Below the pieces are notes generated by a model. It worked only from the letters and a program-made list of their open reading frames with translations, was not told where the DNA came from and made no database searches. A stretch of 64,000 nt of DNA, taken from the IMG/VR virus record IMGVR_UViG_3300035501_001483. The stretch is one strand, 5' to 3'. A program made the position numbers and the translations under genes. Source of the stretch: a virus. Taxonomy: Duplodnaviria; Caudoviricetes. Shown here one piece after another: positions 15,434 through 61,555 of the stretch (the first letter of the stretch is position 1; the number at the start of each line of letters is the position of its first letter).

Positions 15434-18348
15434 ATGGCTGATGTAGTAAATCGAAGTAGAACCTACGATGTGATGGAAATCGACCCATATGCTCCCATGC
15501 TTTATGACGATACATATGGGGACCATGATGAAACCGTTATATCTTCGAGATTCCACTCCGATCAAGGCGGCGCTTCTCCAGCGTTGGAAGACGATATCGA
15601 TTCGTTACGCACCGCTGCACAATCCACCTTCGCCAAGAGAAAGCCCATCATTGACTGGAAGACCACCAATCAATCCTTCATCGATGTGCATAACGACTTG
15701 CGAAGGCTTGGCATCAAAAATAACACGTTCTTCCTCAAGCTTTATGATAGAGATCTCCAAGGCGTCGATCCTTTTATGCCAAACCTGCCTCTGGAGATGC
15801 AAATCAAGGTCTATGTGGAGTGCGTTGTCAATCCTTGGTACTATCTAAGAGAGATTGCTAGATGCCCCGCTCAAGGTAAACCCATCGAGCCAGGCGGTGG
15901 TGATCGTTATGTACTGGATCGTAATAACCTTGCGACCTGGTATCTGTACCTGAACCATATTGACAACTATGCATCCAAGCCTCGTCAGACTGGCAAGACC
16001 CAGGATGCGCTCCACAAGGTAAACTATGCGTATCACTTCGGCTCTACTTCATCATCGGCACTACTCTTTAACAAGGACTTGGCCCTGTCCAAGGAGAACC
16101 TTGCTCGTATGAAGGACCAGCGGGATCTATATCCCACATACCTTCAGATGAGAGTGGCATTTGATGAAGAGACCGGCGGCATCATCAAGGGCGCAGACAA
16201 CATCACCACGATGAAGAATCCTGTGACCAATAATACCATCAAGGTGATGCCATGTGCAACCTCCAAGGAAGCAGCGGACCGGCTGGGACGTGGTTATACC
16301 GCCCCCATCTTGCTCTACGATGAGGTTGACTGGGAACAGCACGCCATCACTGTTATGATGGCATCCGTGTTCGCATACTCCACCGCTTCCAAGAATGCAA
16401 TCGATAACCACAGTATGTCATGCAGACTTCTGCTGTCGACTCCTAAACTACCACTGGGAGTCTGAGCCAGTAATGGCTCTAAGAAAATACCTCTTTAATT
16501 GCGGGAAACTCTCGCTAGGCTCAGATTACGAAGCTTATCTAGTGATGGATAAGTTGCAATGGGTAATGCCAAAGGTATCGTAATAAAATCTGAGATAGAG
16601 ACAATCCGCAGCCAATGATCTCGATCGAGATAAAGGTTCATCGACTATCGAAAGGAGATTGATAACTAGAAATACTATCATGAGAACTGAGTAGAGTAGG
16701 CTTCGGCCCAAATAGGAGGCTCCAAGTATCCTGGTTACAGGGATCTTGGATGAAGATATAGTCAGGCTTATGGGAGACCATAAGGTTAGAAATTACGGGT
16801 GATTTATCTACCAGAGACGGTAAAGCCATGAATGATTACATTCGTGGCACAAAAGAGCAGCGTGGCATGATGATCTGGAATGATCGTATGCTAGATGACC
16901 CTATATCGGCATTGAAAGCAGAAGCTCAGTCTACCAAATACAACGGCATTGTCTATGTCGAGCATACTTGGCAGCAGCTGAAGCGCTCTATGGAATGGTA
17001 TGAGCGTCAGTGCAACCTCTGCGGTTATAACCAGGAAGTTATCCTTCGGGAAATCAACCTGCAGAGATTGGCCGGTTCTAGCTTATGCCCCTTCACCAGA
17101 GAGCAGCAGCTGTATCTTTCTACTCATATCCATAAGCCCGTGGAAGAGATCGACGTACGCTCCAAGGATACCATGTCAACCATTAATATCTACGAGAAGT
17201 TTGATCGTCGAATTCCCTACATCATCGGCATTGACCCGGCTGAAGGTCTGAGTGAAGATAATAACGCCATGATCGTGATCAATCCCTTCACATACAAGAT
17301 TGCAGCTGAGTATAAATGCCCCTACATCTCTCCCAAGGAGTTTGCAAAGCTTATCACTGGTTTTATGGACCAGAGATGCCCTCATGCATTACTGGTCGTG
17401 GAGAGTAACCGAGGCCGTGACCTCATTCAGCGTCTGACAGATTCTCATTATGCCAGCAGAGTCTGGTATGATAAGGATCGCATGAACCAGATTCTCACGG
17501 AAAAGACCGATAGATATGGTGGTATTCCACAGTCTGTGCTGGCTCGTAAAGTGCAGGGATTCGTCACTGGGCCTAAGAGCCGCAATCTGCTCTTCAGTTG
17601 TCTGGAGCAGATGGTCATGGAGAATATCGACTGTATATTCTCCAAGAACCTGGTCAATGAGATGCTGACGCTTATCAGAAAACCCACCACTGGTAAGATC
17701 GAGGCCGCTCCTGGAGAGCATGACGACTGTGTCATGGCGTATCTGATTGGGCTCTATGTCTATCTTAATGCGTCCAATCTTGGAGAGTATGGTATTAGCC
17801 GCCATATGAGACGGCCTGATGAGAAGGTCGAGAAGACCGTCGAATCAGAGAGGCAGTATCGAGACCGTGTGAAAGCAGCCATCAATGTCCTGCCTGAGCA
17901 GTATCGCGGCATCTTTGAGGACTTTGTGCGGGAACGTGATCCTATCACGGATGCCCATCAATATGCCAAAGACCTCAGGAAGGCGGAACGAGATGACCCC
18001 TTTAATCAGTTGAAGATGACTCGTCATCGGACCATGGAAGTGGACGAAGATCAAATCTCACTGGATAAATACATGGGTCGAGATGGAACCCAGAAAGTTC
18101 CCGAGCCCAAAGTTGGCATGGAGTATTTCAAGATGGGCGAAACTCTGCAGACACCTCATTACAATTACGGCAGAAGAGACGATGCGTTGTATATTGGAGA
18201 TGAACCTGACGACACTCTCGGGGAAGAAGAACGTTTCACCTTCGAGCAGGGTATTCTGGATATGAATAGGCCACATGAAGATGAATATGGTTATCCTTCT
18301 TACGAAGATGACGATGGGTTTACCTTCGATCCCAACGATTATGCCTAA
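15434..18348 (+). CDS. terL: Terminase large subunit, two exons (15434-16444 and 16798-18348; 853 aa spliced)
   Basis: Walker A KPRQTGKT, Walker B LLYDE; the spliced junction restores STP|GDLST; nuclease motifs IGIDPAEG and HDDCVMA. Confidence 0.93.
16445..16797 (+). mobile_element. Group I intron without ORF (353 nt)
   Basis: P1 GACTCCT/GGGAGTC with U.G pair; AATTGCGGGAA, AATCCGCAGC, GTTCATCGACTA, AAGATATAGTC; terminal G16797; in-frame ligation. Confidence 0.93.
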
Positions 18349-31021: not shown

Positions 31022-34000
31022 ATGATTAGCATAGACTACAAGGGACACCCTAAGAAACCCTTCAAGCAACTGCTACACGAGTACACCAACACATACCTCA
31101 TCCTGGATGACGTGCTTGCTAGTGAGGAGAGCTATAGCTACGTCTACCAGGATATTCTAGACATTCTCAAGTACGGTCTAGAGAAGAAGAACATTCGTGA
31201 ACTCCCCATTCGTTTCAAGATCCATGATGAAGACCCTGGTGATGTGGAGCATCTGCATACCTTGCAATGCCGGCATTTCTTGTCCAACCTTGTCATGTGG
31301 TATGCCTTCATGAAGATGGAGCGCGTCGACGTGATGGACGAGTCTTACATCATTGACTGGGTTGGCAAAGATGTGAAATACATTGCGCACTACATCGACG
31401 AGATGATTATCCCCAACTACTTTGGCGATTTCCACAGTCTCAACGCCATCGTGGATGAGATCATCTTCCACATCAAAGCCATCTCCGACGCATTCTGTCT
31501 CATCTTCGGCTACAGTGCCTCCATCTGGGACATCATGCAAGCGGAGCGTGCAGACCCCGAGATTCACGATATCATCTATGGCAATATCGATCTGAATATG
31601 CAGCCCAAGGAACTTGAGGAATACCTCAAGGACCTCAATGAGCGTCTGATGGATCGCTTTGCCCATAGTGACAGCGACTTGCGGCCGTTGCTTCTCTCTG
31701 GCAAGAACATCTCTGCCAACCAGTTCAAGGAGATCTTCCTGAAGATTGGCTTGAAAGCAGATATGTCCAACCGCACCATTCCATGGTACATCAACAGCAA
31801 TTTGCTCATCACGGGCATCGACACGCCCGCAGGATTCTACATCTTGGCAGGATCGGGTCGTAAAGCCCTGATGGACTCCAAACTGCTGATGTCCAAACCT
31901 GGCGCTCTCTCCAAGAAAATGAATCACAGTGCTACCGCAATCATTCTTCGTAAGGATCACGAGCACTGCGATTCCACTCGTCCTGTGTATTATTACATCA
32001 AGGACGAGGACTTCCTGAAAGCGCTGGACAAGAGATGGTACTACGATGAACGTGGTAGCCTCCATCTCCTCAACTATAAGACCGATAAGGATCTGATCGG
32101 TAAGACCCTGGGCTTCAGATCCCCGTGCACATGCAGCTCCAAGGATGGCGTCTGCGAACTGTGCTACGGCACATTATTTGACATTAACGATGACCTGTTT
32201 TCACAGGGCTCGTTGGCGGCTAAACTTACCCTCGGCAGCAATGCTGACAAGTTTCAATACTTGGTGGTCGCCTAAAACCGCTTGAACTGCGGGGAGGTCT
32301 CGATAAAGACATTCAAATTACCAAGCCAGTGTGGTGACATGCTGGTGGCAAAGGGCAACGCCGGAGATATGGTAACAAGATTTGGATGAGGGATGATCCG
32401 CAACTAAGGGACTGCTAGCCAAAATCATCGGGCAGTTTAAAGCTCAACGGCTATCGAAACGGTAACTGGGACGGTGACGCCTCAGGTAGAACGGAGTAGA
32501 GTAGGGGTTTATTTTGAGTACGTTATCTCGTGAGCTATTTCTACTAGCAAGGCTCCTTTTAAAATGTTAAACTGAGCCATTGGTTCATCAAGTTAACGTA
32601 GAATTCTATTGGTATGAATATAATTCCAGTAAATACTTTCAGATTAGCAATGTTCTGATTATATGGAGGAATTTAATATGAATATCAATGAAGAAAACAC
32701 TTTCTATCTGATGTACGGTACGTCCGCATACTACATCACGACGGACTGCCGTATCTTTGGAACGAAGGAAGACCAGATCGTTCTGAATCCTTGGATTCAG
32801 AGAGTAAATCCTGAGCGCAAGTTCAGATTTACTGATACTCGGTATTCGACTGAACTTTCTCTCACCGAATTCATGGCATACACATTCTACGGCAAAACAG
32901 CAGCACGCGTCGCACTGCGTTACCAGGACGACGTACCTACCCTAGACAATATTATTCATATCGACCGGCCGCAATTCAAGATCCCGAACGACCGCACGTT
33001 GGTCGTATGCGCTGGCGAAGAGTATCGTAGATGCATCACAAATCCCCGTGCGAATGAGGCATTCTACATCAATCGTTATGGTGCAGTCATCCGGTCTCAC
33101 GTTCGTCGAGCTGTAACAGAGTTCGAGTTCGTGCAATGGAAATATATCAATGGGTATCCGTACGTCTTCAGTCGCACTGTGCATCTTCTCGTATGGAAAG
33201 CATGGGGTGATGTAGAGCGCAGCGAAGAAACTGACGTGCATCATTCCGATGAGTGCCGCTGGAACGCCGATATTGACAACCTGCAGCTGCTTACGAAATC
33301 TGAGCATCGTCGTGTTCATGGTGGTACCAATGCTGGTAAAGCCGGAAAATACGATGAAGCAACGATTCGCCATGTATGCGAGATGATTGAGGCAGATGCG
33401 CACATCGATGACATCATCCAGTATCTCACTGATGGTGCGCAAGATAAGCGTAATGCCGCACGTTGCATGGTACAGCGTGTTCTCAAGGGTGGATATCCTG
33501 ATGTCACATGTGACTACGACTTCTCGAATTATCGGAAGTTCAAGGGAATCGTATTTGACGAGAGCGTCATTCGTGAGGCATGCGAGATGTTGTCGAGCAA
33601 CACGCCGTATAGTGACTTGGATATCACTGCCGCTACTGGATTGAACCCTGCCTACATTGGGCAAATTCGGCACGGCAATGTGACCAATGCAGCGATTGCA
33701 GATATCGTCAAGGAGTACAAGGATAAGATTCACTGCGAAGTTCGCAAAGATGGAAAATTCAAGCCCCATCTCAGCGACCTTGATGTGCAAGAGATTCTTT
33801 CTCTTTGCATGCGTAGTAATCTCTGCAATAATGAAATTGGTGATCGTTATGGTGTATCATCTTCCACCATTTGTGGAATTCGACTTGGAGACTGCCAGGC
33901 ATACAATCATATGATTCACGGCGAGTGCCCGTGCATCTTTACGCCTAGCGAGAGAAAGTATAAAACCAGCATACTGATCGTCGATGAGAACGATCCTCGT

Positions 34001-35013
34001 GTCATTAGCCTTCGTGATGAGTATTACTCAAGATAAGCTTCCCAAGTGAGCGGCATTTAGGCGCATCTCTATAGGCCTTTGTATCGTCTATAGAGATGCT
34101 CTATTTGAAGATATAGTCTAAGTTTCTAGGAATAGGGGTAAATTCCTAGTAGGTATCTCCTACAATAAATTAAAGTCTTGAAATTTATCGGAGAACCATT
34201 GACTTAACCAAGTCATCAGAACCTTACTCACAAGGTCTTTTAGGTCAAAAGCACTCCCAGTTTACTACGTCGGACGAGATTAAGTTCGATGAAGATTTCT
34301 ATAAGAGCTTTGATATCGTCAATACTGAAGTTACAATGAGTGACTCTGTGGAAGACGGTCTTATGCTCCAGCTCGGCCCTGTCCAGGTTGAGGAAACCGA
34401 TGATGGGGATGTCTACTATGTTGAGTATTTCGACCTGGTGGACTACAACGGTGAACTGAAAGCTCATGTCGAAGAAGAGCATAAGTTCAACCTCTATTTG
34501 TCCAAGGAAATGGAAGCTGCATGGAAGCAGTTTGGCGATAAACCTATCCCCGTGGACAAATTTGATGACGATGATGATACCACAATCCTTTTCAACATCG
34601 AAATCAAGTCTAAGAGCAATGGTCAAGGCTACACGCGTGTGACCGCGTTGCTCGACTCCAAGGACCACATGGGATACTCTGAGAACATCGATGGTATGTG
34701 CCAAGAGTTCGCGGAGACCATGCTGGATAGCGGCATTAACTACAACTTCGTGCATTATGAAATGATCATTCGCTCCATGATGCGTAAGAAGAGCAACGAG
34801 CTCGAGTATCCTGACTTCGGGCCCAATGGAGACCATAAGGATTACATCATCCTGAGATTGACGAGTTCTCTGAGTAAGAATCCCAGCCCCATGGTGCGGT
34901 TGAGCACTGGCTGGCTCAAGAAGAACCTGATCTCTACGCAGCTGTATAAGGCCCATCGGCCTTCTCATCTCGATGCGCTGTTTGTCCCTGTACTGACAGA
35001 CGTCATCGACTGA
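31022..35013 (+). CDS. Non-virion RNA polymerase beta' C-terminal subunit, two exons (31022-32221 and 34207-35013; 668 aa spliced)
   Basis: Bridge helix GRKALMDSK..SKPGALSKKM; Zn site RSPCTC..GVCELCYG; splicing restores the trigger helix GSLAA|TKSSEPYSQGLLGQKH; VHYEMIIRSM. Confidence 0.9.
32222..34206 (+). mobile_element. Group I intron carrying an HNH homing endonuclease; atypical 3' end
   Basis: P1 GGCGGCT/GGTCGCC; AACTGCGGG, GATCCGCAAC, GCTCAACGGCTA, AAGATATAGTC; P10 ACTTGGT/ACCAAGT. Confidence 0.88.
32663..34036 (+). CDS. HNH homing endonuclease with C-terminal HTH repeats
   Basis: VHLLVWKAW..DVHHSDECRWN..IDNLQLLTKSEH; located inside the intron; GGAGG RBS. Confidence 0.85.
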   Translation: MEEFNMNINEENTFYLMYGTSAYYITTDCRIFGTKEDQIVLNPWIQRVNPERKFRFTDTRYSTELSLTEFMAYTFYGKTAARVALRYQDDVPTLDNIIHIDRPQFKIPNDRTLVVCAGEEYRRCITNPRANEAFYINRYGAVIRSHVRRAVTEFEFVQWKYINGYPYVFSRTVHLLVWKAWGDVERSEETDVHHSDECRWNADIDNLQLLTKSEHRRVHGGTNAGKAGKYDEATIRHVCEMIEADAHIDDIIQYLTDGAQDKRNAARCMVQRVLKGGYPDVTCDYDFSNYRKFKGIVFDESVIREACEMLSSNTPYSDLDITAATGLNPAYIGQIRHGNVTNAAIADIVKEYKDKIHCEVRKDGKFKPHLSDLDVQEILSLCMRSNLCNNEIGDRYGVSSSTICGIRLGDCQAYNHMIHGECPCIFTPSERKYKTSILIVDENDPRVISLRDEYYSR

Positions 35014-61482: not shown

Positions 61483-61555
61483 AAGACCATAGCTCAGATG
61501 GGAGAGCGTCAGTCTAATAAACTGAAGGTCGTCGGTTCGAGTCCGGCTGGGTGGC
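61483..61555 (+). tRNA. tRNA-like RNA, anticodon AAT (Ile), degenerate acceptor stem
   Basis: D arm GCTC/GAGC; anticodon arm TCAGT-CTAATAA-ACTGA; T arm GTCGG-TTCGAGT-CCGGC; acceptor only 3-4 bp; no CCA. Confidence 0.65.

Follow-up and report, generated by a model that had tools for sequence, protein, structure and literature searches.

The window, meaning the whole 64,000-nucleotide (64-kb) stretch of DNA analysed here, came from an uncultured tailed phage carrying tail sheath and tail tube genes and an intron in the terminase gene. The window matched nothing in the GenBank phage collection, at either the DNA or the protein level, so no cultured or deposited relative was present there. A tRNA gene was also detected at 61487-61550 on the plus strand (Rfam, 49.1 bits). 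The ORF at 31022-32275 and the frame that is open from 34174 to 35013 were two parts of one gene. The best solved relative of this gene was the non-virion RNA polymerase (nvRNAP) of Bacillus phage AR9 (chain 7s00_D, E=5e-77 with a profile and 7e-42 with the single sequence), and gp74 of phiKZ (7ogp_D) also matched the family profile (E=7e-19). The similarity to the beta′-C subunits of both nvRNAPs extended over the full length, trigger-loop motif included. The region of the break aligned to AAQSIGEPGTQLTMRTFH of a bacterial beta′ subunit (8i23_D), which corresponds to the first trigger-loop helix, with the junction falling between AA and QSIGEPGTQ. The interrupted gene is thus predicted to encode the beta′-C subunit of a jumbo-phage nvRNAP, and an earlier note on this DNA, which had assigned the gene to beta′ and labelled it late RNAP, was reasonable in both respects because of these profile matches and the trigger-loop alignment. 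A homology search of the 64-kb window revealed no second copy of the gene.

The features of the locus are collected in Table 1. The exon-1 ORF continued into the intron and reached a stop at 32273-32275, while exon 2 opened with TKSSEPYSQGLLGQKH, the trigger-loop helix, whose first bases (34207-34213) form the exon strand of P10. As placed by the alignments, the insertion would separate Ala400 from Thr401, where the trigger loop begins. Gene callers shortened both exons, reporting 417 aa with read-through for exon 1 and 216-225 aa for exon 2.

Table 1. Positions of the gene parts, predicted intron elements and candidate splice-site features in the window
Feature	Position	Strand	Basis
Exon 1 of the nvRNAP beta′-C gene, 400 codons	31022..32221	+	P0002 residues 1-400, 86% identity
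P1 exon strand GGCGGCU	32215..32221	+	Covaries with guide in relatives
Predicted group I intron, IA2-like, 1,985 nt, last base A34206	32222..34206	+	Two Rfam RF00028 half-hits
P10 guide ACUUGGU, directly 5′ of P1 guide	32259..32265	+	Seven perfect pairs with 34207-34213
P1 guide (internal guide sequence) GGUCGCC	32266..32272	+	Pairing with exon strand
5′ half of ribozyme core	32273..32520	+	Rfam alignment and alignment with relatives
Predicted HNH homing-endonuclease ORF, 452 aa	32678..34036	+	Pfam HNH_3, gene callers
3′ half of ribozyme core	34037..34119	+	Rfam alignment, alignment with relatives
P9.0 5′ strand AAGUU, pairs with 34201-34205	34120..34124	+	Covaries in relatives
P9 hairpin (CUAGGAAU/AUUCCUAG, 34126-34149) and small P9.1 hairpin (to 34163)	34126..34163	+	Read from sequence
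Unused G after CUU, possible ancestral or cryptic 3′ splice site	34180	+	Sequence; use would give ...AAKFIGEPLT-stop
Exon-like 3′ tail (KFIGEPLT)	34181..34205	+	Shuffle tests, alignment with relatives
Last intron base, A instead of the expected G	34206	+	Ortholog alignment, relatives, P10/P9.0
Exon 2, 268 codons and stop	34207..35013	+	P0002 residues 401-668, 79% identity

With permissive settings, the Rfam model RF00028 matched the intron in two halves (32282-32462 and 34031-34139, 13.6 and 18 bits) with an ORF between them. At the gathering threshold, only the terminase intron was found among the introns of the window, and the one at 32222-34206 was missed because its 1.4-kb ORF splits the core. 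An ORF-less relative of 375 nt at the same insertion site (L004) scored 64.9 bits (gathering score 50, E=3e-16). The core of the window intron contained P3 to P8 and the guanosine-binding G-C pair of P7, and its strands aligned with those of the relatives. The 5′ half comprised the P3 5′ strand (32278-32283), P4-P6, the P7 5′ strand GGCUA (32449-32453) and the start of P7.1/P7.2, and the 3′ half comprised the P3 3′ strand (34048-34053), a P8 of 12 bp (34063-34074 with 34088-34099), J8/7 and the P7 3′ strand UAGUC (34114-34118); the P3 pairing was read from the sequence. The ORF matched PF13392 (HNH_3) with 31.8 bits (cut-off 24.8) as well as PHROG HNH families. Translation probably begins at ATG 32678, which follows a GGAGG (32666-32670) and was chosen by two gene callers; a further in-frame ATG occurs at 32663. 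With an HNH catalytic domain in an intron-borne ORF, the product is a predicted homing endonuclease, and 32222-34206 is best described as a putative mobile group I intron with an HNH gene in a peripheral loop.

Exon junction and flanking helices

A search of 5.8 billion proteins yielded 101 homologs of beta′-C. Most of them were uninterrupted, and the intron-free ones measured about 665-690 aa. The closest ortholog, P0002 (86% identical), was intron-free, had 668 aa (400 + 268) and read GSLAA-TKSSEPLGQ at the position where the window read GSLAA (32207-32221, exon 1 ending in GCG GCT at 32221) and, from 34207, TKSSEPYSQ. Alignment of P0002 to the window by tblastn put residues 1-400 at 31022-32221 and the remainder (401-668) at 34207-35010, leaving neither gap nor overlap and bearing out the junction that the earlier note had proposed (GCT32221 to ACC34207, with A34206 as the last intron base). 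Judged from this alignment, U32221 must be joined to A34207 if the 668-aa protein of the intron-free relatives is to be made, which would therefore leave A34206 as the end of the intron. Since the first base of the intron and the first base of exon 2 are both A, the junction can slide by one nucleotide (T32221 to A34207, or A32222 to C34208), and an A closes the intron in both cases; the U.G wobble of P1 would favour U32221 as the end of exon 1. The earlier note had named an assembly error as what would refute its reading. Such an error was excluded because two further, independent assemblies (L041 and L042) were identical to the window over all 3,992 nt, so that three assemblies agree. The terminal guanosine of group I introns (omega-G) was thus absent from the window intron, as it was from six relatives, and four other relatives had it. 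Omega-G is near-universal among these introns, but documented exceptions (PMC6545197) show that it does not define them.

The helices that flank the two splice sites were recovered throughout the introns at this site. P1 presented its terminal U.G pair at the 5′ splice site (U32221), compensatory changes were found in relatives (CGCCGCU/GGCGGCG and CGCGGCU/GGCCGCG), and exon 1 ended in a U opposite a guide G in all introns compared. P10 amounted to 7 bp in the window, began at base +1 of exon 2 and drew on the nucleotides immediately 5′ of the P1 guide; ACTTGGT was the perfect complement of ACCAAGT, exactly as the earlier note had described it. This helix covaried among the introns (ACCAAGU/ACUUGGU, ACUAAA/UUUGGU, ACUA/UAGU, ACUUUA/UAAAGU and AUCAAAG/CUUUGAU). 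The duplex between guide region and exon 2 exceeded that of shuffled exons in eight of nine family members (0-22 of 500 shuffles reached the observed energy), and when all guides were crossed with all exons the cognate exon gave the best or a near-best energy. In most relatives a second P10 segment, located further 5′, paired with exon-2 positions +9 to +18: GGGCUCA/UGAGCCC in L003, GGUUCGCU/AGCGAGCC in L004, UGGCUCGGA/UCCGAGCCG in L014, GGUUCUGAU/AUCAGAACC in L016 and CACUCG/CGAGUG in L017. Compensatory changes were clear in these second segments. In the window itself, the first segment was the longest (7 bp) and the second was weak (4 bp).

On the intron side, a P9.0 of 3-5 bp adjoined the terminal A. 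The pairing of AAGTT with GACTT directly before A34206, also pointed out in the earlier note, agreed with the sequence, and the helix covaried in the relatives (AAGUU/GACUU, AAAAU/AUUUU, UAC/GUA, AACU/AGUU and CAAU/AUUG). Except in L015, the A-ending introns (six of seven) have a U behind the P7 3′ strand that could form a pair with their last base. Covariation of P10 and P9.0 argues that these two pairings fix the 3′ splice junction.

Introns at the same site and their guanosine pocket

Eleven further introns at the same insertion site were compared, one of which (L040) runs to the contig end with its last base unread. [quoted passage not shown] In L003 the junction was immediately preceded by an in-frame TAA, which would bar the use of any in-frame 3′ splice site further upstream, and in L001 the last 12 nt of the intron contained no G. 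Shifting both splice sites by one base did not rescue a terminal G, the last base becoming U, A, U, U, G and C across the relatives. Because six related introns share the A and the one-base shifts are inconsistent, the terminal A is a property of an intron group from different samples and not a quirk of the window. The intron-core tree was poorly resolved, so that its topology left a single origin of the A undecided, and the G-ending L017 fell among the A-ending introns.

Other departures were seen among the homologous loci. The insertion in L015 (5200-6290), at the same site, had a degraded P7 3′ strand (no GAAGATATAGTC), and its exon 2 carried an ATG exactly at the junction and MERITYRPQ in place of the trigger-loop motif TKxSEPxGQ; it may be an intron in decay, with the gene on its way to becoming truly split. 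In L019 (5200-5900; P0026/P0028 type) the gene was interrupted about 5 nt further downstream, after AATV, by two tandem group I core-like units in which GTGAATTGC..CAACGACTATCG..ACATAGTCT occurs twice, suggesting twin introns or a duplicated intron. In protein P0078 the trigger-loop helix was broken off at a third point (..AATKTSNPLG, followed by VLCA-stop), which suggests another insertion site within about 10 codons.

The G.U pair in P7 that the earlier note had connected with the unusual end was present in the window, where GGCTA (32449-32453) faces TAGTC (34114-34118). However, every other A-ending intron had GACUA, as did the G-ending L017. Being unique to the window, the G.U pair was rejected as an adaptation to, or a correlate of, the terminal A. 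The guanosine-binding G-C pair was unchanged in all A-ending introns, J6/7 and J8/7 were the same in A- and G-ending ones, and no change in the core tracked the terminal base. The second group I intron of the window (16435-16784, Rfam 76.9 bits), placed in the terminase gene by the earlier note, had a terminal G and, as that note had said, the canonical P7 GACUA.

The hairpin of TGACTT (34200-34205) and AAGTCA (34210-34215) across the 3′ splice site, another observation of the earlier note, was real in the window (-4.7 kcal/mol, an energy reached by 8 of 500 shuffles), although it was absent from the relatives. Pairing between the P1-loop (guide) region and the 3′ tail did not exceed that of shuffled sequences in any intron tested.

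The 3′ tail and alternative readings

The last nucleotides of the intron had been taken for a fossil exon behind a canonical G. The sequence check agreed that G34180, preceded by CTT, is followed by AAA TTT ATC GGA GAA CCA TTG ACT TAA, reading KFIGEPLT-stop. This tail overlapped a GRACCA motif, present at -14 in the window, L001, L014 and L015, and contained the P9.0 3′ strand GACUU. When the 88-nt tail was shuffled, about 0.1% of trials (about 0.001) yielded a correctly spaced [GST]-E-P behind a G, for a pattern that was defined post hoc. At the nucleotide level, the tail of the window and its own exon shared 10 of 26 positions (P=0.31, not significant). Exon-like tails recurred in the relatives: in L014, tail and exon agreed at 14 of 26 positions with the same 26-nt offset, in L004 the tail aligned to the exon over 31 columns (P=0.013), extending beyond the guide-pairing part and ending in CAG-TTA (compare CAGATTA in the exon), and L025 and L039, from a separate G-ending lineage at the same site, had an exon-like stretch (P about 0.02-0.04). 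Nothing comparable was found in 6 of the 11 introns tested. A fossil exon is therefore plausible from its recurrence, although the want of significant similarity within the window itself counts against it, and there is about an even chance that the window tail is a decayed copy of exon 2. The stretch in L025 (6320-6396) and L039, which runs from ATAAGAGAAC to TATAGGTC and lies 14-44 nt before the intron end, also resembled exon 2 of L010 (LKISEPIGQ), with 17 of 20 identities (P=0.017).

The earlier note went further and proposed that G34180 was formerly the intron end, that 26 nt of exon 2 were then taken up from another allele and the 3′ end shifted to the A, and that the intron now chooses between two sites as an on/off switch for late RNAP. 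The recurring tails agree with such a history, as do the CUU before G34180, which can pair with the AAG of J7/9, and the E-P of KFIGEPLT at the spacing of the family, a match that shuffled tails seldom produce. However, the tail patterns were defined after the fact and the resemblance in the window is not significant. The G at -27 was not conserved (A in L001, T in L014), no P10 partner was found for the G34180 site, and a 9-bp pairing between guide region and tail across G34180 was equalled by 43 of 200 shuffles and was rejected as not above chance. Relatives reading AAKFIGEPLTQ were looked for, and none of the 101 homologs read KFIGEP. In addition, the tail of L003 (TGAGTAA up to the junction) set against that of L017 (TGAGTAAGAG) suggests the loss of a terminal GAG (3 nt) as another route to an A end, and a simple G-to-A change or such a 3-nt deletion explains the A equally well as a fossil exon. 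Nothing indicated a regulated choice of sites, and the switch was not upheld. We regard this whole series of events as unlikely, and the simplest view of the last 26 nt is that they are a degenerate duplicate of the exon-2 start or resemble it by chance, and are not a working switch.

Terminal G is near-universal in group I introns, and ribozymes in which it is mutated tend to use cryptic G sites, which would favour a reading in which the A junction is only apparent and a nearby canonical G is used, either G34176 or G34191 in frame (10 or 5 additional residues), two sites on which the earlier note is silent, or G34180 out of frame with a truncated protein. Yet all three of these positions are without P10, and their use would place 5-10 extra residues in the trigger-loop helix, or a stop at residue 408, in a protein whose length the orthologs fix at 668 aa. 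The relatives share no consistent G site either, given the TAA of L003 and the G-free end of L001, and we consider use of a nearby G very improbable. The gene might also not be spliced at all, being permanently split or dead, with its downstream part translated from the Met at 34336. Jumbo-phage RNAP subunits are often split, gene callers report a 225-aa ORF from 34336, and L015 has its ATG at the junction together with a degraded P7 3′ strand. Against this, the 43 codons from 34207 to 34335 carry the trigger-loop His motif, are conserved with the orthologs and offer no start codon or ribosome-binding site, and the ribozyme core, P1, P10 and P9.0 are intact and covarying, which makes a permanently unspliced gene extremely unlikely.

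We consider it probable that a mobile HNH group I intron is spliced out of the nvRNAP beta′-C gene after A34206. Splicing would follow the ordinary two-step route: free guanosine would cut behind the P1 U.G pair, and the released exon 1 would next attack the bond that follows A34206. This bond would be placed by the 5-bp P9.0 adjoining the A and by P10 from the first base of exon 2, not by a bound terminal G; in most relatives, the second P10 segment with exon-2 positions +9 to +18 would also contribute. The second step would probably be slower than with a G, or protein-assisted. Engineered Tetrahymena ribozymes, in the work of Michel et al. in 1989 and of Been and Perrotta in 1991, reportedly ligate exons at a terminal A when G264-C311 of P7 is changed to A-U. 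Because the P7 pocket is canonical here, and in view of that work, a terminal A should be a poor substrate for exon ligation, which counts against splicing after A34206, as do the weak second P10 segment of the window and the poorly resolved intron tree. For the group as a whole, we lean slightly towards exon ligation at a terminal A with an unchanged guanosine pocket, by means of a two-part P10 (up to about 18 exon nt) and a 3-6-bp P9.0; the A end may stem from a 3′ splice site that moved downstream across a duplicated piece of exon.

Comparison with known systems

The engineered Tetrahymena ribozymes share with the window intron the exon ligation at a terminal A that is predicted for it. They reportedly need the A-U replacement of G264-C311, whereas the G-C pair is kept in every A-ending intron described here. 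The Coxiella 23S rRNA intron Cbu.L1917, the subject of Raghavan et al. in 2007 (J Bacteriol 189:6572), reportedly ends in A and is self-splicing. According to the title of that article, which is cited in PMC3428280, the 23S rRNA intron of Coxiella burnetii "lacks the canonical Omega G". As far as this title tells, it resembles the present introns as a group I intron of the bacterial world without the canonical terminal G, and it differs in interrupting an rRNA gene, in its subgroup and in having no phage context, whereas the window intron lies in a phage RNAP gene. The mitochondrial ND5-717 intron of hexacorals ends in A and its exons are precisely ligated in vivo (PMC6545197). Like the A-ending group of the window intron, it is conserved across a lineage; in contrast to the mobile, HNH-bearing phage intron, it is organellar and strictly vertical, holds whole genes in P8 and may back-splice (PMC6545197).

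Among phages, PhiPA3 gp210 denotes an intron with an HNH endonuclease in the gene of the virion RNAP beta subunit (PMC11620839), and group I introns occur in AR9-like phages and are frequent in gut jumbo phages (PMC12880540). [quoted passage not shown] They differ in subunit and site, the target here being the beta′-C trigger loop of the non-virion enzyme. A terminal base other than G is not described in PMC11620839 or PMC12880540.

The second step of group I splicing is regarded as dependent on the terminal G, which some intron finders also take for granted in setting boundaries. Standard annotation misses introns such as the present one or misplaces their ends, as the Rfam threshold and the shortened exons illustrate. 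If the present reading is right, an essential phage gene would depend on an A-ending intron, as in the six relatives, and the canonical pocket, combined with strong pairing in P9.0 and P10, suggests that positioning by helices can replace G binding. The ORF-less L004 intron would then be a ready natural model, of only 375 nt, for a second step without a bound G. Altogether, the A end belongs with a rare, documented exception and is not a new mechanism or principle; its occurrence in seven related phage introns and the clear positional helices strengthen the finding.
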